From sequence record OQ689735.1: 64,000 nucleotides of DNA; one strand, written 5' to 3'. The first letter of the stretch is position 1, and each line of letters opens with the position of its first letter. A program made the position numbers and the translations under genes. The notes under the pieces are model-generated. The model had not been told where the DNA came from. It did not search any database and saw only the letters and a program-made list of their open reading frames with translations. Source of the stretch: Escherichia phage 4E10. This document shows positions 2,459 to 36,108 of the stretch, piece after piece.

Positions 2459-4278
2459 TACTGGCTCATCCATTCTTTACGAAGGTCAGCATTATCTCCC
2501 ATGAGCATTTCAAAAAGCTCTTTCCAGTTCTGAGGAAGTTTAACAACATCATATACTGGATTTTGAATCATCTCACGATATTCAGATTTTTCCAAAGAGC
2601 CAAGTCCCTTAATATAACGGATGCTATGTTTAGGTAGAGCATCTTTAGCACTCTCATATTCAGCGACTGTATAAAACCATTCTTGTTTTTTACCGACCTG
2701 AGCGATGATTACGGGAGTTTTGACAAAGCGAATTCTTCCTTGTTCAAACAGTTCTGGCCAATTACTAAAAAATCCGAGCAGAGAAGGATAAATGCTTCCT
2801 AAACCATCATGGTCAGCATCGGTCATAATAGCAATATTATGATAATTCAAGTTTTCAGCTTTTTCACCAAGAACTAATCCAGTGATTGCGCAAATATCAA
2901 ATAGTTCTTTGTTTTTAAGCATATCAGCATATGACATACCCCAACTGTTGAGAACTTTACCACGCAATGGATAACCACCATGAAGTTCTTTATCACGAAC
3001 ATCAATAAGATATCCGATAGCAGAATCACCCTCAGTCAAGAAAAGAGTAGTGTCAGCATCTTTACCGCAAAGATTCGCTTTGATATGTTTATGAACCTTA
3101 GCTTTAGAAGCCTTTTTAGCTGCTTTAGTTTCTGCTGCTTTTTCTGCTGCCAATTTACGTGCTAAAGCAGCTTCAATAATCGGCATTAAAATTGCTTCAT
3201 TATTTAGAATAGCGCGTGAAATCTTTTTAGCATCAAGTTGAATATGACTACGAATTTCACCAAAAGGAGAAGTAAGTCGTTCTTTAGTTTGAGAATCAAA
3301 TCGCATGTTTTTCATATCACGGACAAACATAACGATAGTCAAACATTCTTTGACACGCGCTTTAGTTACATCAATTTTGAACTTACGTTTGATTTGTGGA
3401 ATAAGGTCTTCACAAATATCATCCATAACACAGTCAATGTGATGGCCACCATTCTTAGTGTGAATGTTATTCACATAAGTTAATTGACGAAAACCATCCG
3501 GTGAACGACCAACCGCAATAGAACAATTTTCTTGTTCTTGAACAATAGCATGTTCATCATACTGTCGTGCATATTTCTTAAAATTGCCCTGAACCTTTTT
3601 ACCATTAAAAGTAAATTGAATATCAGGATAAACAACAGCAAGTGTCTGGAGACGATCTAGTGTAATGTCAAGATAAACTTGGGACAGCTCATTAGTTTCA
3701 AATGACATAAAATCAGGAATGAAAGTAACACGGGTTCCTTTCCATTTTCCTGGAATAGTTTCCCAGGATTTATTTTCCATGCCATTTGAACAACGAACTA
3801 CAATATTATTTTGACCATCGCCAGTTTCACCGACAAACATCACAGAAAAAATGTTAGTTAAACTAGAACCAACACCATTCATACCACCGGTGACGCGTTC
3901 TTTATCATCACCGAAGTTACCACCTGCTTTTGGAATAGTCCAGGCAGCAACAGGACCAGGAATTTCTTCACCAGTAGGTGTTTTAACCATCGCTTGTGGA
4001 ATACCGCGACCGTTATCTTCAACTGTTACTTGATTATTTTTGATAGTAACATTAATTTTATTTGCGAATTTAAACTTAGTACGAATACCTTCATCTACTG
4101 AGTTATCGATAATTTCATCAATAAGCTTAACAAGACCAGGTACATACTGAACACTTTCCCATTTACCAAACAGAAAGCGCTCATGCATTTCATTAGCAGA
4201 AGAGCCAATATACATGCCGCTACGCTTTTTGATATGTTCAATATCGCTCAGAATTTTAATTTCATTCTTAATCATCAC
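2458..4278 (-). CDS. 39: DNA topoisomerase II large subunit, fused gp39+gp60 type
   Basis: 606-aa ORF; GHKL ATPase motif (EDNGRGIP), TOPRIM-like LTEGDSA and IMTDADHDG; single uninterrupted ORF; likely true start is the ATG one codon in. Confidence 0.9.
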   Translation of the reverse strand: MMIKNEIKILSDIEHIKKRSGMYIGSSANEMHERFLFGKWESVQYVPGLVKLIDEIIDNSVDEGIRTKFKFANKINVTIKNNQVTVEDNGRGIPQAMVKTPTGEEIPGPVAAWTIPKAGGNFGDDKERVTGGMNGVGSSLTNIFSVMFVGETGDGQNNIVVRCSNGMENKSWETIPGKWKGTRVTFIPDFMSFETNELSQVYLDITLDRLQTLAVVYPDIQFTFNGKKVQGNFKKYARQYDEHAIVQEQENCSIAVGRSPDGFRQLTYVNNIHTKNGGHHIDCVMDDICEDLIPQIKRKFKIDVTKARVKECLTIVMFVRDMKNMRFDSQTKERLTSPFGEIRSHIQLDAKKISRAILNNEAILMPIIEAALARKLAAEKAAETKAAKKASKAKVHKHIKANLCGKDADTTLFLTEGDSAIGYLIDVRDKELHGGYPLRGKVLNSWGMSYADMLKNKELFDICAITGLVLGEKAENLNYHNIAIMTDADHDGLGSIYPSLLGFFSNWPELFEQGRIRFVKTPVIIAQVGKKQEWFYTVAEYESAKDALPKHSIRYIKGLGSLEKSEYREMIQNPVYDVVKLPQNWKELFEMLMGDNADLRKEWMSQ

Positions 4279-15447: not shown

Positions 15448-15588
15448 TTACAATTTAGCGGCTTTCCAGAGTTGTTCAATAATCTCTTGGTCTATTTCTT
15501 TAGTTATTTCATTACGTAATAAAGCAGTAAGGGCTTTCGCCCTTTTCTTATTCAACTTTTTGAGTTGACGCTTATTTAAACGAGCCAT
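15448..15588 (-). CDS. small basic hypothetical protein
   Basis: 46-aa ORF below cutoff (MARLNKRQLKKLNKKRAKAL...); ATG overlaps gene 56 stop (TAATG). Confidence 0.4.
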   Translation of the reverse strand: MARLNKRQLKKLNKKRAKALTALLRNEITKEIDQEIIEQLWKAAKL

Positions 15589-16106
15589 TAATAACCTCGG
15601 TCTTGACGAGCGAAATTTTCAGCATTTTTCAAGTAATAAAGTTTAAAGATTTCTTCAGCTGTAAGACCAAGACCCTGGAACATATTCAGAACGAAATGAA
15701 GAATATCAATCATTTCAAATTTAATTTCTAACTGGTCTTGCGGAGACAAATCAGTAATCAGAGTTTCACGACGTTCACCATGCTGCGACTTCCAAGGTTT
15801 CCATACAGCAGATGCGTCTTTTTCACCATTACTCATACCACCAAGAGAAGTCAGAAGTTCACGGAATTCATCATCAATATAATCTTTCTGATTGCGTAGC
15901 CAATCAACAACTTCACCGGCAGTAGCCAAGTCATCAGGATGACGATTATATTCAGGTTTATCTTTAGCTAAACGAATCTGCAGAGATTTCTGCATGTCAA
16001 GCATTACCTGCAGCGGGTCTTTTTCATCACCGAGAATATCCCAGTATTCATTTTGAGCTTTATCAGCGCCTTCGATCAGTTGACTACATTCGTTGAAATG
16101 CGGCAT
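15588..16106 (-). CDS. 56: dCTP pyrophosphatase (MazG-like)
   Basis: 172-aa ORF; matches T4 gp56 in size, position and sequence. Confidence 0.85.
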   Translation of the reverse strand: MPHFNECSQLIEGADKAQNEYWDILGDEKDPLQVMLDMQKSLQIRLAKDKPEYNRHPDDLATAGEVVDWLRNQKDYIDDEFRELLTSLGGMSNGEKDASAVWKPWKSQHGERRETLITDLSPQDQLEIKFEMIDILHFVLNMFQGLGLTAEEIFKLYYLKNAENFARQDRGY

Positions 16107-16179
16107 GTTATTTTTCCTTTCAATTCATGGGTTAGTAGATTAATTATACAATAAATATATAAAGCAATAAGGAGGACAT

Positions 16180-16236
16180 ATGGTACAAAAATTAATGGCA
16201 CTTGTTAATGCCATCAAAAGTAATAAAAACGTATAG
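16180..16236 (+). CDS. plus-strand mini-ORF (18 aa) with strong RBS
   Basis: AAGGAGG 5 nt before ATG; MVQKLMALVNAIKSNKNV. Confidence 0.3.
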   Translation: MVQKLMALVNAIKSNKNV

Positions 16237-16253
16237 CTTTTACTATTTCTGCT

Positions 16254-16379
16254 ATGGTAGGAATTTTACTCTGGAACTTTATTTTATCACCAATTGCAAT
16301 TGCACATGGTGTTAATATTCCAGTAGTTACTCTTGATACATTTGTAGATTTAGCATTTGCTTTAGTTGGGTTAATTTAA
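16254..16379 (+). CDS. plus-strand mini-ORF (41 aa), hydrophobic peptide
   Basis: MVGILLWNFILSPIAIAHGVNIPVVTLDTFVDLAFALVGLI; stop overlaps gene 61 stop convergently. Confidence 0.3.
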   Translation: MVGILLWNFILSPIAIAHGVNIPVVTLDTFVDLAFALVGLI

Positions 16380-20855: not shown

Positions 20856-21218
20856 TTAAAAGAATTTAAATTTTTTCTTTGACCTTTTATTAAATGCATC
20901 TTGTAGTTGCATTGTAATACATTTTTCTACATGAGGAGCTAACTCAGCTTTTCTTTCTTGGTCAAGAACAGCAAAGTCCATTACAACCTTTCCATCAACC
21001 CAATCTAATTTTGTCACATACACAATGTGTGTAGAACCATCTTCTAGTTTAATGACAATCTCCTGGATAACATTTTCCATGGCAGATTTAATTATCTTAA
21101 GAGATTCATTAAAAAGACGTTCTTTTCTTTCTTCTTCCCCCTCCGAAGAGGGGGATTCATCGATAATTTCTAGATCTAAATCTAAATCATCTTTATTCAT
21201 TAAATTCTTCCATATCAC
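20856..21218 (-). CDS. 40: hypothetical protein at the T4 gene 40 position
   Basis: 120-aa ORF between 41 and uvsX; acidic N-terminus; synteny only. Confidence 0.55.
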   Translation of the reverse strand: MIWKNLMNKDDLDLDLEIIDESPSSEGEEERKERLFNESLKIIKSAMENVIQEIVIKLEDGSTHIVYVTKLDWVDGKVVMDFAVLDQERKAELAPHVEKCITMQLQDAFNKRSKKKFKFF

Positions 21219-22374
21219 TTAACTGCTCGAGGTCAGTTTCTAAATCAGCAGCTGATTTACTTTTACTTTCTGGAGATTTAAATTTTTCAACCTTTGAGTT
21301 AATCAATTCATCAACTTCAGCTTCAACAATTTCATTACTATCAATAGCACCTAACTGATAAGCACGTTTAATAGCATCTCGGAATGGTTGATGCTTAAAT
21401 AAAGGACCCCAGAATGTAGTGCAGTTAGTATCTTTTGCACGCCAAGATTTTTCTTCGCGAATCATCTCACCGGTTTCTTCGTCAAGAAATTCACGAGCAT
21501 ACCAACCATTCTTAGGTTTTACCACGAATCCTAATTCTAGAGCCATATCTAACAATCCAGAATAAGGATCGATACCACCGTCAAATTTAACATCAATAAA
21601 GAATTTACTTTTTTCTTTAACGGTACGAGATTTTTCTACATTTAGAACAAATTGATACCCCTGAAGATCAGAACCATCTTTAATCTGACGTTTACCGATA
21701 ATGAATACAGTATCAGCCGAATACATTACGCCTGTACCACCTGTCATCACGGTTTTACTAAACATTTCAATTGTTTCAATTGTATGGTTAACCGCAACGC
21801 ATGGAATATTTTTAATGCTAAAGTAAGGAGTAACAATACGGAATAATGACTTCAGCGATTTAGCACGAGTCATATCTGCCACAGATTTTTCATTCAAGGC
21901 ATCTTCCGTTTCTTTCTTAGAAGCCATATTACCGATTGAGTCGATGAATACAATAACTTTTTCACCGCGTTCAATAGCTTCAAGCTGGTTCACCATATCA
22001 ATTTTCAGCTGTTCAACTGACTGGATTGGCGTATGAATTACTCGTTCCGGGTCAACTCCCATGGATCGCAAATAAGCTGGAGTAATACCAAATTCACTAT
22101 CATAGAATAGACAAACCGCGTCAGGATATTTGTTCAAATACGCCGCAACCATAGTCAAAGACATATTTGATTTAAAGTGTTTAGAAGGCCCTGCGAAAAT
22201 AGTTAAACCAGACTGCATACCGCCATCAATCGCACCAGAAATAGCGATATTAAGCATTGGAATTTTTGTACGGATTACATCTTTTTCATTAAAGAATTTA
22301 GATGTAGTCAGTTCAGCAGTCATTTTAGAAGTGGAAGCTTTAATCAAACGGGATTTTAAATCTGCGATAGACAT
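21193..22374 (-). CDS. uvsX: UvsX recombinase (RecA-like)
   Basis: 393-aa ORF; Walker A GPSKHFKS; strong match to T4 UvsX. Confidence 0.9.
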   Translation of the reverse strand: MSIADLKSRLIKASTSKMTAELTTSKFFNEKDVIRTKIPMLNIAISGAIDGGMQSGLTIFAGPSKHFKSNMSLTMVAAYLNKYPDAVCLFYDSEFGITPAYLRSMGVDPERVIHTPIQSVEQLKIDMVNQLEAIERGEKVIVFIDSIGNMASKKETEDALNEKSVADMTRAKSLKSLFRIVTPYFSIKNIPCVAVNHTIETIEMFSKTVMTGGTGVMYSADTVFIIGKRQIKDGSDLQGYQFVLNVEKSRTVKEKSKFFIDVKFDGGIDPYSGLLDMALELGFVVKPKNGWYAREFLDEETGEMIREEKSWRAKDTNCTTFWGPLFKHQPFRDAIKRAYQLGAIDSNEIVEAEVDELINSKVEKFKSPESKSKSAADLETDLEQLSDMEEFNE

Positions 22375-22451
22375 TCATTTTTTCCATAGGCATCATTATA
22401 TTTTCCTCACTGGTTAAAGATAAAGTAATTATAACACAATAAATTTAGGCA

Positions 22452-23300
22452 TTAATCAACTTCTATCGGATGAATAGCATTAAACTTATGAAATGCTTCT
22501 GATTTTTCTTTACGTGAAACACACATGCGAAGAACCTTTAATGGCTCATCTTCTTCACCCAACGATTTTCGTTTTTCAATATTCGATGTTTTCCAACGAG
22601 CTTGTTCTGGAAACTCTCTATTGATTTGCTCAAGCGCTCTATTATGTTTAGAATTACTACGAATTGAACTGCACCCGCCAGGAGCTTGTGCTTTTCCAGA
22701 TACAACCAGATATTTGAACAAGGCCAAATGCGGATAACCTTGATTAATTAAATTGAGAAATGCATACATATCTTCGCACAAATCAATTTTTCCATACCCA
22801 ATTTGTTCTGTCGTAAGTTTTCCGAGGTCATACCATGTATTCGTGAATCCATATGAATTTTCACGATAATTACCCCAAGATGAAGTAATTTTAAAAATAG
22901 GTAGACGAGCATGACCATGATAATACCCGCAATCCATGGCATCCTCAACATATTGAATCAATTCATAGAACTGTTCACGAGTTAATTGATTAATTTTATC
23001 TACACAACGACGATCATCTCTTTTTCGCATTGAACTCATACGAATAGTAGTATCATCGTCAATCATCCAGATTCGTTGACCTGCATACATATCAGTAATT
23101 GCTTTACGAGTACCGGCAATTCCGTTTACATCATCAGGAATAGTTATAATTTTAGCTCTAGACCCATAAGCGTCATGATAAGCTTTTTCTTCATGTTCAC
23201 GCACTACAATATGGGGTTCATAATCAGTCGGAAACATATCAAGGGCAGAAACTGCCCCGACACGCTGATAACTTGGAATTACGAATTGAATCATTTCCAC
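22452..23300 (-). CDS. putative GT-A fold glycosyltransferase at the beta-gt locus
   Basis: 282-aa ORF between uvsX and 42; DxD-like motif IWMIDDDTT; not T4 beta-gt as I recall it. Confidence 0.55.
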   Translation of the reverse strand: MEMIQFVIPSYQRVGAVSALDMFPTDYEPHIVVREHEEKAYHDAYGSRAKIITIPDDVNGIAGTRKAITDMYAGQRIWMIDDDTTIRMSSMRKRDDRRCVDKINQLTREQFYELIQYVEDAMDCGYYHGHARLPIFKITSSWGNYRENSYGFTNTWYDLGKLTTEQIGYGKIDLCEDMYAFLNLINQGYPHLALFKYLVVSGKAQAPGGCSSIRSNSKHNRALEQINREFPEQARWKTSNIEKRKSLGEEDEPLKVLRMCVSRKEKSEAFHKFNAIHPIEVD

Positions 23301-24031
23301 TCACCTTTATAGTCTTTTTTCACAATATGAGTTTCGCCAGTATTCCACCAATGATCAACCAAGTAAAAATGACGAGAATATACATGAAGACTTCCGACAT
23401 TCCATATAATAGAACCTGCTTTATACTGACGAATTGAATCGCCGGCATTCAAATCAGATACTAATTTATCTAATACGTATTTTTGCCATGCATAATCATT
23501 ACGGAATCCGAAGACCACGTCATTTGAGCGCATGCTTACTACTGCATTGACTTTCTTATCACGAATCAGGTACTGTACTGTATTAGTACACATGAAATCT
23601 GACATACCATCTTTATTGTAGTCAAATTGCATGGATGGACGAGTATAAATCATGATACCACGTCGAGAATCAGGGTTTTGACCAAGTTCAGCTAAACACA
23701 TATCATACTGGGCGTAGTTATCTTCTGACCAAATAGCCCAACCATAATTCGAGTTAATTTCGCCTTTAGAAGATGCTACCTGCTGCCAAATCTTTGGTGT
23801 TTCGCCTGGAATATCTTTAACAAACAAGCTCTTAGATTTATACCATTCAAGTTCACGCTGAATGTATTCATCATTAAGAGCGCCAAAAATAAACGGTTCA
23901 TCTGCTACAAATGATGCGCCAATAATTTCAATAGTTTTAACACCGGTTTTATCAACTACGAAATCTTTTTCTTTTAATGCAAGCCCCAAATGAAGACGGA
24001 TTTCTTCAACTGTCATAGAGTCACTAATCAT
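23291..24031 (-). CDS. 42: dCMP hydroxymethylase
   Basis: 246-aa ORF; matches T4 gp42 in length and position. Confidence 0.85.
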   Translation of the reverse strand: MISDSMTVEEIRLHLGLALKEKDFVVDKTGVKTIEIIGASFVADEPFIFGALNDEYIQRELEWYKSKSLFVKDIPGETPKIWQQVASSKGEINSNYGWAIWSEDNYAQYDMCLAELGQNPDSRRGIMIYTRPSMQFDYNKDGMSDFMCTNTVQYLIRDKKVNAVVSMRSNDVVFGFRNDYAWQKYVLDKLVSDLNAGDSIRQYKAGSIIWNVGSLHVYSRHFYLVDHWWNTGETHIVKKDYKGEWK

Positions 24032-24184
24032 TTAAACCTCAATTGATACATTCATATTTAACTTGTAACAGTAATAAGCTCCAACCTAAAATAATAGTTG
24101 GAATCATAAGAGGAACCGTTACACTATAGTATATACTTATTATAATCATCAAGATTAAAAGCAACACTGCTATAATTTTGCTTT

Positions 24185-24436
24185 TCATTCCTTCTCTCTG
24201 ATGATAATTACTTGATTTGGCTGTGCAGACTTTTTAGTTTCACCCGCAATTGACCAAATAAATGTAATAAACCAACCAATAATTGACCAGTTAAACAGTA
24301 AAGACGTGAAAAAGATTCCTACTGTCGATTTTGACCCACGCATCAAGGCGATAAACCATGGAAGCATGTATATAATAATAGCCAACACACCTGAAACTAA
24401 AACCATAAAAATTGAACCTGCTACTAAAGTTTCCAT
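24185..24436 (-). CDS. imm: Imm superinfection immunity membrane protein
   Basis: 83-aa ORF with two hydrophobic helices; T4 Imm size and position. Confidence 0.75.
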   Translation of the reverse strand: METLVAGSIFMVLVSGVLAIIIYMLPWFIALMRGSKSTVGIFFTSLLFNWSIIGWFITFIWSIAGETKKSAQPNQVIIIREKE

Positions 24437-24834: not shown

Positions 24835-25071
24835 TCAAATGCAAGTAGTAATTACTCCAGTAGTGCTTATGCAGATATTACCCATTTGCACACCTAAAGA
24901 TCCATTTGTATTCACATGAAGATTATCATCAATTTTAACTGATATTTTACCATTAGTGTGAATAACGGTGCTAGATTTAATCACAGGTTGAGTATCATTT
25001 TCAACACTAACAAATGGAACTGCTACTAATGCAACTAAACAAACTGCTAAACACCCCATAACAATTTTCAT
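24835..25071 (-). CDS. small secreted/membrane protein
   Basis: Track ORF 24835..25083 trimmed to ATG after GGAGAA; N-terminal signal-like segment. Confidence 0.5.
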   Translation of the reverse strand: MKIVMGCLAVCLVALVAVPFVSVENDTQPVIKSSTVIHTNGKISVKIDDNLHVNTNGSLGVQMGNICISTTGVITTCI

Positions 25072-25108
25072 TTTATTCTCCAAATCTGTATCAGTAGTTG
25101 ATAGTTGT

Positions 25109-31583: not shown

Positions 31584-33266
31584 TTAAACCATTACAGTAA
31601 ATCGACCAACTTTCTTCATTTGAAGGTGCTGACCATATGCTTGTGGGTCATGGTCTCTATGCGAAATAACAAAAACATTAGTATTTTTTAAACTATCTAA
31701 AATAGTTGAAATAGCTTTTACACCTTCAACATCGGTCGCTGAATCAAAAACTTCATCAAGAATTAGTGTGTTTATTTTAACACCTGAAACTTTTTCAGCA
31801 ATATCACGCCAAGTAAATAAAAGAGCAATATCAATTCGTGCTTTTTCACCTTGACTGAATGAAGCATAACTAAAATCTTCACGACCACGGGATTTAATTG
31901 TCTCATTAAATTCTTCATCTAATGTAAACACATAATCCGCTTCCATTATTTTAAGATAATGGTTAATCTGCTTATTAAATAATGGAATGTACTTTTTAAT
32001 AATAGCACCTTTAATACCAGAATCTTTGAGCATATCAGTCAAAATTCCTCGGTGGTATTTTTCCATTACTAAATTAGTTTTTGTCTTAACAATTTTATCA
32101 AGTTCTTCTTGAAGCAGTGCTATTTCATCAGCATGGTCAATAAACTCAGAAGATGCTTTTTCTATAGCCGCTTTAACCTTTTTAGCTTTATCTACTGTCG
32201 TGATTAGAGATTGCTTTTTATTGCGAATATCATTTGCCAACGACTGCTGGGTTTTAATATTATCTCGGTATTCATCAACAAGAACTTTTAAATTATCACG
32301 GTGTGTTGAAAGCTGTTCAAACGAATGCGTGCATTCAGAAACTTTATCTTTAATTTTAGAAACAACTTTATCACCGGAACTCAATTGTGACAAACAGGTT
32401 GGACATAATCCACCTTCGTGATACATATTAATGACTTTATTATACGAGTCAATTTTTGATTTAATTAAAACTGCTTCTTGACCGATTTTATTAAATGCAT
32501 CAGTCGGGTCTTCGTCTAAAACAATATTAACTAATCTTTCGTTAGCTTCTTCTATTTCCGATTTTAGCGTTCTAGCTTCTTTTGCCAAATCATCATACAT
32601 ATTTTGCAGACGAGTAAGGTTGTCACCCGTTAATTTTTTCTGGCGTTCAACGTTATCATTATATATTTTAATTTGTTGGATAATACTATCTTTTTTAACA
32701 TCAAGCACTTGGTTTTGTGAATTTAATTCACGTATTAGTGCTTTATTAAGCTTATCCATTTCAGCTAATGTTCCTACCTCAAGCAGGTCTTCCACAAGCT
32801 TTCTTCGTGCAGGGGTCGACAAACCCATGAAAGGGGTATACCCTGCTGTACCAAGGACAACAATCTGCTTGAAACTGGCATATGACATTCCGATAAGCTG
32901 TTCAAATTCTGCTTGGAAATCTTTACTGCTGGCAGATTCATTAAGACGTGTACCGTTAACGGTGATTTCGAAAACGTTTGGTTTTTGTCCTCTTTTGATA
33001 TAGTACTTTTTCTCATCATATTCCATCCACAGTTCAACTAAAAGTTCTTTCTTATTTGTGCTGTTTATTAATTGACCTTTCTTTACATCACGAAATGGCT
33101 TACCAAAAAGCCCAAATGTGATGGCTTCTAACATAGTAGACTTACCACCGCCATTTCGTCCAGTAATAAGAGTTTTTTGAACCTTATCTAATTGAATGTC
33201 AATAGGATTTCCACCTACTGACATTATATTTTGATACCTAACTCGGTTTAGTTTAAAATTCTTCAC
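31584..33266 (-). CDS. 46: recombination nuclease ATPase subunit (Rad50/SbcC-like)
   Basis: 560-aa ORF; Walker A GRNGGGKST, Walker B LDEVFD, central coiled coil. Confidence 0.9.
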   Translation of the reverse strand: MKNFKLNRVRYQNIMSVGGNPIDIQLDKVQKTLITGRNGGGKSTMLEAITFGLFGKPFRDVKKGQLINSTNKKELLVELWMEYDEKKYYIKRGQKPNVFEITVNGTRLNESASSKDFQAEFEQLIGMSYASFKQIVVLGTAGYTPFMGLSTPARRKLVEDLLEVGTLAEMDKLNKALIRELNSQNQVLDVKKDSIIQQIKIYNDNVERQKKLTGDNLTRLQNMYDDLAKEARTLKSEIEEANERLVNIVLDEDPTDAFNKIGQEAVLIKSKIDSYNKVINMYHEGGLCPTCLSQLSSGDKVVSKIKDKVSECTHSFEQLSTHRDNLKVLVDEYRDNIKTQQSLANDIRNKKQSLITTVDKAKKVKAAIEKASSEFIDHADEIALLQEELDKIVKTKTNLVMEKYHRGILTDMLKDSGIKGAIIKKYIPLFNKQINHYLKIMEADYVFTLDEEFNETIKSRGREDFSYASFSQGEKARIDIALLFTWRDIAEKVSGVKINTLILDEVFDSATDVEGVKAISTILDSLKNTNVFVISHRDHDPQAYGQHLQMKKVGRFTVMV

Positions 33267-34729: not shown

Positions 34730-34866
34730 ATATCAAGAACCGTCATTGAAATGCAAAATAAAATTATTGAAATAAACCCATCTGGTGTGCTAAAGAACCC
34801 AATCCAACATGCTCTAGTGAATAGATAAAATGCGAGAAAAAGTATCACATATCCAAGAAATATCAT
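34726..34866 (-). CDS. small hydrophobic peptide (47.1 position)
   Basis: 46-aa ORF below cutoff (MIFLGYVILFLAFYLF...); stop overlaps gene 47 ATG. Confidence 0.4.
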   Translation of the reverse strand: MIFLGYVILFLAFYLFTRACWIGFFSTPDGFISIILFCISMTVLDI

Positions 34867-34890
34867 TATATCAAACTCCGTATAAAGCTA

Positions 34891-34906
34891 AAGGGCCGAA
34901 GCCCTT
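34891..34906 (-). terminator. hairpin terminator (AAGGGC-CGAA-GCCCTT)
   Basis: Stem-loop after alpha-gt stop. Confidence 0.5.
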
Positions 34907-36108
34907 TATTTTGTAATAATGTCAAACTGTTCTTTAAAGCAGAAGCTTGAATCTTGATGCTGATACAAAAATTCATATGCTTTTTCTCGCTCACGGTCAT
35001 AAAGAGCTCGGTCAGATGACAGTTCTTTAATACGCTCAAATGTTGATTCCATATCATTTTCATCAAACCAAATGATACCGCTATCATGCGAGGTCAAAGG
35101 AGTATTATCAACACGGAATTTTAAATTTTCGCCAGTAGATTTCCAGAAAACAGGAATTGTTCCACATGCACCAAGCTCGAGATGAGTATATTCTAAAGAA
35201 CGTTGTAGATATTTTTTATCCAACTTACTCAACTGATAACCAAAACCGGATTTACTCATACGTTCAAGCATTTCGCTATTTACATAACGGTCAAGAATTT
35301 GCGTTGGCAAATTAGGAGCAATTTTAATTTGGTCTACTTGATGAAGACGATAATACTCGTATGGAATTCCTTTTTCTTTAATAGGAATGAACGCTGGAGA
35401 ACGTTCCAGACCTTCCATAATAGTACTTAGTCCTGCAGGTTTAAGATGTTTTTCATGAAAATCAAACATCTGATAAAAACCTTTCCATGTAGTCGTGCGA
35501 CCAATCCAACGGTTGATATTCATGTTAATTTCAGAAACATCTTTCCAGTAGGTTGACCGAACCTTCGCAATATCCATAGGAGGCTGAAAGTTATATACGG
35601 TCGGTGCTTCTTCAATATCATCAAACAGAGAAACAGTTTCTGGATACCATTCTTTCATCAGAACTTTATTAAAATCGCCATTATCAGAATGGCTAAAAAT
35701 AACATCAGCTCGACGAACAGTTTCTTCTAATCCCAAATTTCGACGCAAAGAAAGAGAAGAATGGTCATGTTGATAAACTACAACACGAACAGAAGGTTTA
35801 ATGTTATCAATAATTTTTTTATAGTTATTAATAGTGTCTTCTTCAACCGAAGTAGCAGGAACTGAATTGATAATTAGAATATCACAATCATTTACCAGCT
35901 TAAGTGTTTTATCATATTCTTTTGCCAATAAAACCGGAATTGAAAATGATTTATAATCATGCGCGCAATTACGAGTAAATGATTTATCTTTAGCATAAAC
36001 CAAAGTTACTTCATGACCATTCTTAATAAACCAATCACGTTGCTCAAGAGAAAATTTAGTTACACCACAACCTTCAAGACCTCGAGCCATAAAAATACAT
36101 ACTTTCAT
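34906..36108 (-). CDS. agt: DNA alpha-glucosyltransferase
   Basis: 400-aa ORF; strong match to T4 alpha-gt (MKVCIFMARGLEGCGVTKF...). Confidence 0.9.
   Translation of the reverse strand: MKVCIFMARGLEGCGVTKFSLEQRDWFIKNGHEVTLVYAKDKSFTRNCAHDYKSFSIPVLLAKEYDKTLKLVNDCDILIINSVPATSVEEDTINNYKKIIDNIKPSVRVVVYQHDHSSLSLRRNLGLEETVRRADVIFSHSDNGDFNKVLMKEWYPETVSLFDDIEEAPTVYNFQPPMDIAKVRSTYWKDVSEINMNINRWIGRTTTWKGFYQMFDFHEKHLKPAGLSTIMEGLERSPAFIPIKEKGIPYEYYRLHQVDQIKIAPNLPTQILDRYVNSEMLERMSKSGFGYQLSKLDKKYLQRSLEYTHLELGACGTIPVFWKSTGENLKFRVDNTPLTSHDSGIIWFDENDMESTFERIKELSSDRALYDREREKAYEFLYQHQDSSFCFKEQFDIITK

Follow-up and report, generated by a model that had tools for sequence, protein, structure and literature searches.

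A T2/T6-type beta-glucosyl-HMC-alpha-glucosyltransferase is predicted at the beta-glucosyltransferase locus of Escherichia phage 4E10

Phage T4 carries beta-gt between uvsX and gene 42, and Escherichia phage 4E10 has an open reading frame of different sequence in that place. The locus raises the question of which glycosyltransferase this frame encodes and which sugar modification its product makes on the hmC of phage DNA. We analysed the 64,000-nucleotide stretch of the genome that contains it (OQ689735.1), referred to below as the window. The gene very probably encodes a T2/T6-type beta-glucosyl-HMC-alpha-glucosyltransferase (ba-gt, also named ggt or TAGT), which would make gentiobiosyl-hmC, as judged from sequence comparison and by analogy with orthologues described in the literature.

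The gene and its neighbours

The ba-gt gene is best placed at 22452..23294 on the minus strand, stop codon included, where it would encode 280 residues. The open reading frame is real, being present both in the list of open reading frames and in the letters, and ends with a TAA stop codon at 22452..22454. The mechanical call extends the frame to a GTG at 23300, which gives 282 residues, and an earlier note on this DNA had used that coordinate and that length. The position of the frame between uvsX and gene 42 stands, but the true start is the ATG at 23294..23292, two codons after the GTG. The start is assigned to this ATG and not to the GTG because it overlaps the TGA stop codon of gene 42 (23293..23291) in the arrangement ATGA, because the Shine-Dalgarno-like sequence GGTGAG lies 5 nucleotides upstream of it, and because the annotated orthologues of phages T2, EH2, and G4507 begin at the same ATG and have a length of 843 nucleotides with the stop codon, or 280 residues.

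The DxD-like motif IWMIDDDTT, to which the note had drawn attention, is present and forms residues 75-83 of the 280-residue protein. The codons of D79-D80-D81, which read GAC GAT GAT on the minus strand, occupy positions 23052..23060. R11 is encoded by a CGT on the same strand at 23262..23264 and belongs to the motif IPSYQR, right after strand beta-1. D175, in the motif CEDMY, has its codon at 22770..22772, also on the minus strand.

The genes that flank ba-gt are those that flank beta-gt in T4, as had been described from the sequence. The downstream neighbour that marks the locus is uvsX (21193..22374, minus strand), recognised by the Pfam models T4_UVSX_C and RecA. Gene 42 (23291..24031, minus strand) encodes the dCMP hydroxymethylase that provides the hmC precursor; its product matches the T4 enzyme over its full length (PDB: 1B49/1B5E, E = 8.9e-165) and is 96.7% identical to T4 gp42. 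Further away, alpha-gt (34906..36108, minus strand) encodes a DNA alpha-glucosyltransferase of 400 residues, which is matched by the Pfam model PF11440 AGT (E = 1.8e-237) and is nearly identical over its full length to the T4 alpha-GT (PDB: 1XV5, E = 5.6e-258). The presence of this gene and of a dCMP hydroxymethylase, both reported before, is thus borne out by profile and structure matches. Gene 56 (15588..16106, minus strand), a dCTPase/dUTPase gene, was located by a tblastn search with T4 gp56 (73.8% identity over 172 residues, E = 2e-84). In T4, the equivalent slot holds beta-gt together with the homing endonuclease gene segA. A homologue of SegA was found nowhere in the 64-kb window, hence none lies between ba-gt and uvsX, and homologues of T4 dam and segF are likewise absent from the window.

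The spacer between ba-gt and uvsX is 77 nucleotides long (22375..22451). Its predicted RNA fold is not better than those of shuffled sequences (z = -0.59), and we claim no regulatory element there. A scan for promoters and terminators around ba-gt gave no more sites than shuffled sequence, and the sole terminator-like hairpin of the scan lies inside the coding sequence. No Rfam family matched anywhere in the 64-kb window.

Family membership, fold, and proposed chemistry

The protein belongs to the Pfam family PF20691 (TAGT, for TET-associated glycosyltransferase), which it matches with 40.7 bits against a gathering cutoff of 27.5. The whole 205-position model is matched (profile positions 2-205), by residues 3-207 of ba-gt, and about 70 residues at the C-terminus lie outside the model. 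The PHROG family 842, named beta-glucosyl-HMC-alpha-glucosyltransferase, is matched with E = 9.4e-89. Together, these two profile matches identify a ba-gt of the T2/T6 type, and a match to a GT2 profile did not appear. The window differs from the TAGT family in the genes that accompany ba-gt, which are a thymidylate-synthase-type hydroxymethylase and alpha-gt, not a TET/JBP dioxygenase.

The closest known systems are those of other Tequatrovirus phages. The T2 and T6 proteins, also of 280 residues and also encoded between gene 42 and uvsX, are 98.2% (275/280) and 97.9% (274/280, with an amber codon of T6 scored as a mismatch) identical to that of the window, and their partner genes are likewise those for alpha-gt, gp42, and gp56. 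Three differences set the window apart from T2 and T6, all of them conservative or at variable sites: H40, I101, and E278. The protein EH2_028 of phage vB_Eco_EH2 (OZ034684.1) is 98.9% identical (277/280) and has the same immediate neighbours; the changes from EH2 to the window are Y40H, V101I, and A278E. These private or rare substitutions of the window all fall at positions that are variable or gappy in the family. The closest relative at the locus is phage G4507, with 99.3% identity, and it shares the order 42 - ba-gt - uvsX with T2 and T6.

The gene is also widespread. The 1151-nucleotide locus is found in 472 phage records with at least 80% coverage, of which 410 are at least 95% identical; these records are mostly from Tequatrovirus phages of Escherichia, Shigella, and Yersinia, and many of their genes are named beta-glucosyl-HMC-alpha-glucosyltransferase. 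A tblastn search recovered the protein from 688 phage records, including relatives with about 64% identity from phages of Klebsiella, Enterobacter, and Salmonella. The number of relatives found depends on the method of protein search: a word-indexed search returned only 11, and an exhaustive HMMER search 331. The window is collinear over 24 kb with many Tequatrovirus genomes, with identity of up to 97.7%, and is therefore part of an ordinary mosaic member of this genus. The names given to ba-gt in databases vary and include "hypothetical protein", "b-gt", "putative beta-glucosyltransferase", "glucosyl transferase", and "thymidylate synthase". The last of these is also the name under which gp42, the dCMP hydroxymethylase, is entered in most RefSeq records.

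The predicted structure of ba-gt has a pLDDT of 95.5 and consists of a single Rossmann-like alpha/beta domain with a GT-A fold. Its top fold matches are all GT-A enzymes and include the inverting GT2 members TarS, TarP, K4CP, and cellulose synthase, so that the earlier assignment to the GT-A type agrees with solved structures of such enzymes. In the model, the three aspartates follow the central beta strand E74-78. The sequence identity of ba-gt to GT2-type GT-A enzymes (TarS, TarP, SpsA, K4CP, and cellulose synthase) is only 7-16%, and, by analogy with its orthologues, ba-gt differs from them in that its acceptor would be a sugar on duplex DNA. Searches of the PDB with the single sequence and with a profile of 88 sequences found no solved relative of ba-gt. 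The best matches of the profile, to de novo designed TIM barrels (E = 3e-5), were spurious, consisting of repeated short matches to a designed repeat, and the best GT2 enzyme was 9jma with E = 0.6. A Pfam scan at E <= 10 gave only TAGT and a sub-threshold match to RNA_binding, with no Glycos_transf_2, and NCBIfam offers a model neither for this protein nor for alpha-gt. Because the likeness to GT2 enzymes is structural only, ba-gt is not filed as a GT2 enzyme of CAZy or Pfam.

Four residues, R11, D80, D175, and G207, are invariant in all 88 aligned sequences of the family. At least 85 of the 88 also have D79 and D81 (87/88 each), G206, and R212, and 71 have E174. The protein from the window keeps all the residues that define the family, namely R11, the DDD at 79-81, D175, the GG at 206-207, and R212.

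From these features, ba-gt would be a metal-dependent GT-A enzyme, and probably an inverting one, because it would make a beta linkage from an alpha-linked donor. By comparison with GT-A enzymology, residues D79-D81 would hold a divalent metal ion together with the pyrophosphate of UDP, and R11 may help to bind the nucleotide donor. D175, possibly with E174, is a candidate for the general base that acts on the 6-OH of the acceptor. This residue is located about 95 residues past the DxD motif. The catalytic bases of SpsA, TarS, and TarP have a similar spacing, about 95 residues beyond the DxD, and it is this likeness that makes D175 the candidate. The approximately 70 C-terminal residues outside the Pfam domain are less conserved and may contact DNA.

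Proposed pathway, product, and extent of modification

In the pathway that we propose, gp42 would make hm-dCMP and gp56 would remove dCTP, so that the phage would replicate with hmC replacing C. Alpha-gt would attach a first glucose, donated by UDP-glucose, to hmC through an alpha linkage, and ba-gt would add a second glucose, again with UDP-glucose as the donor, beta-linked to the 6-OH of the first. The product would be beta-1,6-glucosyl-alpha-glucosyl (gentiobiosyl)-hmC. Both the product and its dependence on the gene are taken by analogy from the literature on orthologues that are 98-99% identical.

That literature is extensive. The cloning of ba-gt from T2 and T6 is attributed to Winkler and Ruger (1993, NAR 21:1500), as cited in PMC11946311. 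A T6 mutant with a deletion of ba-gt reportedly contains alpha-glucosyl-hmC only, which its authors presume to account for about 75% of cytosines, and it is more sensitive to the glycosylase Brig1 (PMC11078745). DNA of the T6 deletion mutant is a substrate of the glucosidase BapA, whereas wild-type T6 DNA is not (bioRxiv 10.64898/2026.02.25.707755). Tequatrovirus phages of the Durham Collection that encode alpha-GT and TAGT without beta-GT were found by HPLC-MS to contain hmC, alpha-glucosyl-hmC, and alpha-gentiobiosyl-hmC, with no beta-glucosyl-hmC detected in their DNA, and the DNA of EH2 was about one-third hmC and two-thirds gentiobiosyl-hmC by the same method (PMC13390438). The same study states explicitly that the position of TAGT is syntenic with that of T4 beta-gt. 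A second study modelled T6 TAGT as a GT-A enzyme and placed it as sister to GT2 (PMC13216743, NAR 2026). It found alpha-GT with TAGT to be the prevalent combination, and alpha-GT with beta-GT in only 6 of 753 phage genomes. Alpha-gt with TAGT is thus the usual Tequatrovirus configuration, and T4 is the exception. The earlier note had proposed that this phage makes a second sugar modification on hmC that differs from that of T4; orthologues of 97.9-99.3% identity, synteny, and the genes of the pathway support one of the T2/T6 gentiobiosyl type. The whole proposal is, however, already published, and the finding is correct and not new.

The window phage would accordingly be placed by comparison in the majority Tequatrovirus class, with alpha-glucosyl- and gentiobiosyl-hmC in its DNA, in contrast to the mixture of alpha- and beta-glucosyl-hmC in T4. 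DNA with gentiobiosyl-hmC resists Brig1 in vitro and the BapA glucosidase, and is still cut by the type IV enzymes GmrSD and BrxU (the papers cited above). The modification class therefore predicts the behaviour of a phage towards defence systems, which is useful in the choice of phages for therapy and in the interpretation of host range, and this is already familiar from textbooks and the recent literature.

The presence of the gene does not fix the level of modification, because T2 has only about 5% gentiobiosyl-hmC (PMC6024577, PMC11078745) with a protein as similar to that of the window as stated above, and because the Durham phages EL, BGP, and Geo have an intermediate level of about 40% (PMC13390438); the level in T6, for comparison, is about 70-72%. 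These cases are what speaks for a ba-gt that contributes little in the window phage, as a hypomorph, through limited expression, or in competition with alpha-gt, so that most of the modification would be mono-alpha-glucosyl-hmC as in T2. We consider such a low contribution unlikely. The window keeps R11 and the other invariant residues, in contrast to T2, which has R11H, and its allele is nearest to those of the EH2 type, which are linked to high levels. A good Shine-Dalgarno sequence precedes the start of ba-gt, which is also coupled to gene 42. Furthermore, the window has no dam, like T6 and the Durham phages with high gentiobiosyl levels, whereas EL, BGP, and Geo share a Dam-like gene with T4 (PMC13390438). 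On the grounds of the intact invariant residues, which set the window apart from the T2 and T6 alleles in databases, and of the missing dam, we predict with moderate confidence that the DNA of the window phage is heavily gentiobiosylated, at the level of T6 or EH2 and not at the 5% of T2.

A second alternative is that ba-gt transfers a sugar other than glucose, or acts directly on hmC as the primary glycosyltransferase, and that the modification is thus unlike that of T2 and T6. [quoted passage not shown] Nevertheless, we regard this alternative as highly improbable. A protein with 98-99% identity to those of T2, T6, and EH2, and with its substitutions only at variable positions, is very unlikely to have changed its specificity. 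Moreover, alpha-gt is there to provide the normal acceptor, and no genes for the biosynthesis of sugar nucleotides were noticed near the locus in the list of open reading frames, in agreement with the annotation of G4507.

Finally, a diverged T4-type beta-glucosyltransferase with a GT-B fold, which the genomic position and GenBank labels such as "b-gt" and "putative beta-glucosyltransferase" would suggest, is refuted by sequence and fold: a blastp comparison of ba-gt with T4 beta-gt gave a best E of 3.4, a tblastn search of the 64-kb window with T4 beta-gt found no homologue (best E = 1.4), the model is a single-domain GT-A structure with a DxD motif, no GT-B enzyme ranked high in either of two fold searches, and the published modelling agrees (PMC13216743). 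No alignment emerged that would make the gene an ordinary T4 beta-gt, and the view that it is not one holds. The T2/T6-type ba-gt predicted here and T4 beta-gt (PDB: 1JG7, according to PMC13216743) have in common their genomic slot, UDP-glucose as the donor, and a beta linkage formed on phage DNA. They are unrelated in sequence and differ in fold, GT-A for ba-gt and GT-B for the T4 enzyme, and in acceptor: T4 beta-gt glucosylates naked hmC, whereas ba-gt would extend alpha-glucosyl-hmC.

T2 and T6 alleles, and observations on neighbouring genes

The comparison of alleles brought up differences in T2 and T6 that the window does not have: R11H in T2, an amber codon in place of Q10 in one T6 record (MH550421.1), and the shortening of DDD to DD in another (AP018814.1). 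The ba-gt of T2 has a histidine at position 11 (positions 2531-2533 of locus L001, T2 AP018813.1). All seven T2 records share an identical 121-nucleotide stretch that contains codon 11 with SV76, whose record is equal in length to T2 AP018813.1, and the next-best records, EH2 included, differ from T2 by one base in this stretch. The T2 and EH2 proteins differ only in R11H and P251S; of these two positions, 251 varies and is gappy across the family, and R11 is one of the invariant residues.

In T6 MH550421.1, codon 10 is changed to TAG (about 3951-3953 of locus L002, minus strand), and the coding sequence is therefore annotated from Met20, with 261 residues. In T6 AP018814.1/NC_054907.1, one GAT of a GAT-GAT-GAT run has been lost in frame (about 1155-1160 of locus L006), which leaves a protein of 279 residues with DD in place of DDD. 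The T6 lesions may have arisen as real mutations of the stocks or as errors of sequencing. Their importance lies in the use of the T6 RefSeq protein, the DD variant, as the TAGT reference of the family (PMC13216743).

We tentatively suggest, from the sequences of the alleles, that small differences in ba-gt set the diglucosylated fraction in T-even phages, with R11H lowering it in T2 and the allele of the window representing an intact wild type; we hold this to be possible, at somewhat less than even chances. If it is true, it would explain the 60-year-old contrast between T2, with about 5% gentiobiosyl-hmC, and T6, with about 72%, and it would mean that the laboratory T2 allele and the T6 alleles, at least as found in databases, are damaged, whereas the window carries a natural intact one. 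Damaged alleles could be of consequence where T2 and T6 serve as modification standards. We found no paper that links R11H to the low gentiobiosyl-hmC content of T2, and this observation on T2 and T6, which lies outside the window, may be new.

Some features of the surrounding genes deserve mention. The absence of dam from the window is T6-like. Gene 56 and the gene 61 region are separated by only about 270 nucleotides (16107..16375). The gp56 of the window is only 73.8% identical to that of T4, as against about 97% for gp42 and near identity for alpha-gt. The gene 56 region is known as the target of the marker exclusion that SegF mediates between T4 and T2, and a divergent gene 56 allele in the window would be consistent with this.

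Two small open reading frames near gene 42 are predicted to encode membrane or secreted proteins. The first, between gene 42 and imm (24039..24188), encodes a very hydrophobic product of 49 residues, and the second, between imm.1 and gene 43 (24835..25083), a product of 82 residues whose N-terminus is signal-like. Both positions hold annotated coding sequences in G4507, and the annotations of T4 and T6 include neither; T2 AP018813.1 wrongly labels the place of the 82-residue frame as "tail tape measure protein". Between gene 47 and alpha-gt, G4507 has two extra open reading frames of 624 and 141 nucleotides (positions 32182-32942 of locus L005), whereas the window has only a 176-nucleotide spacer (34730..34905), which suggests a small indel or a mobile-element difference between these two phages.
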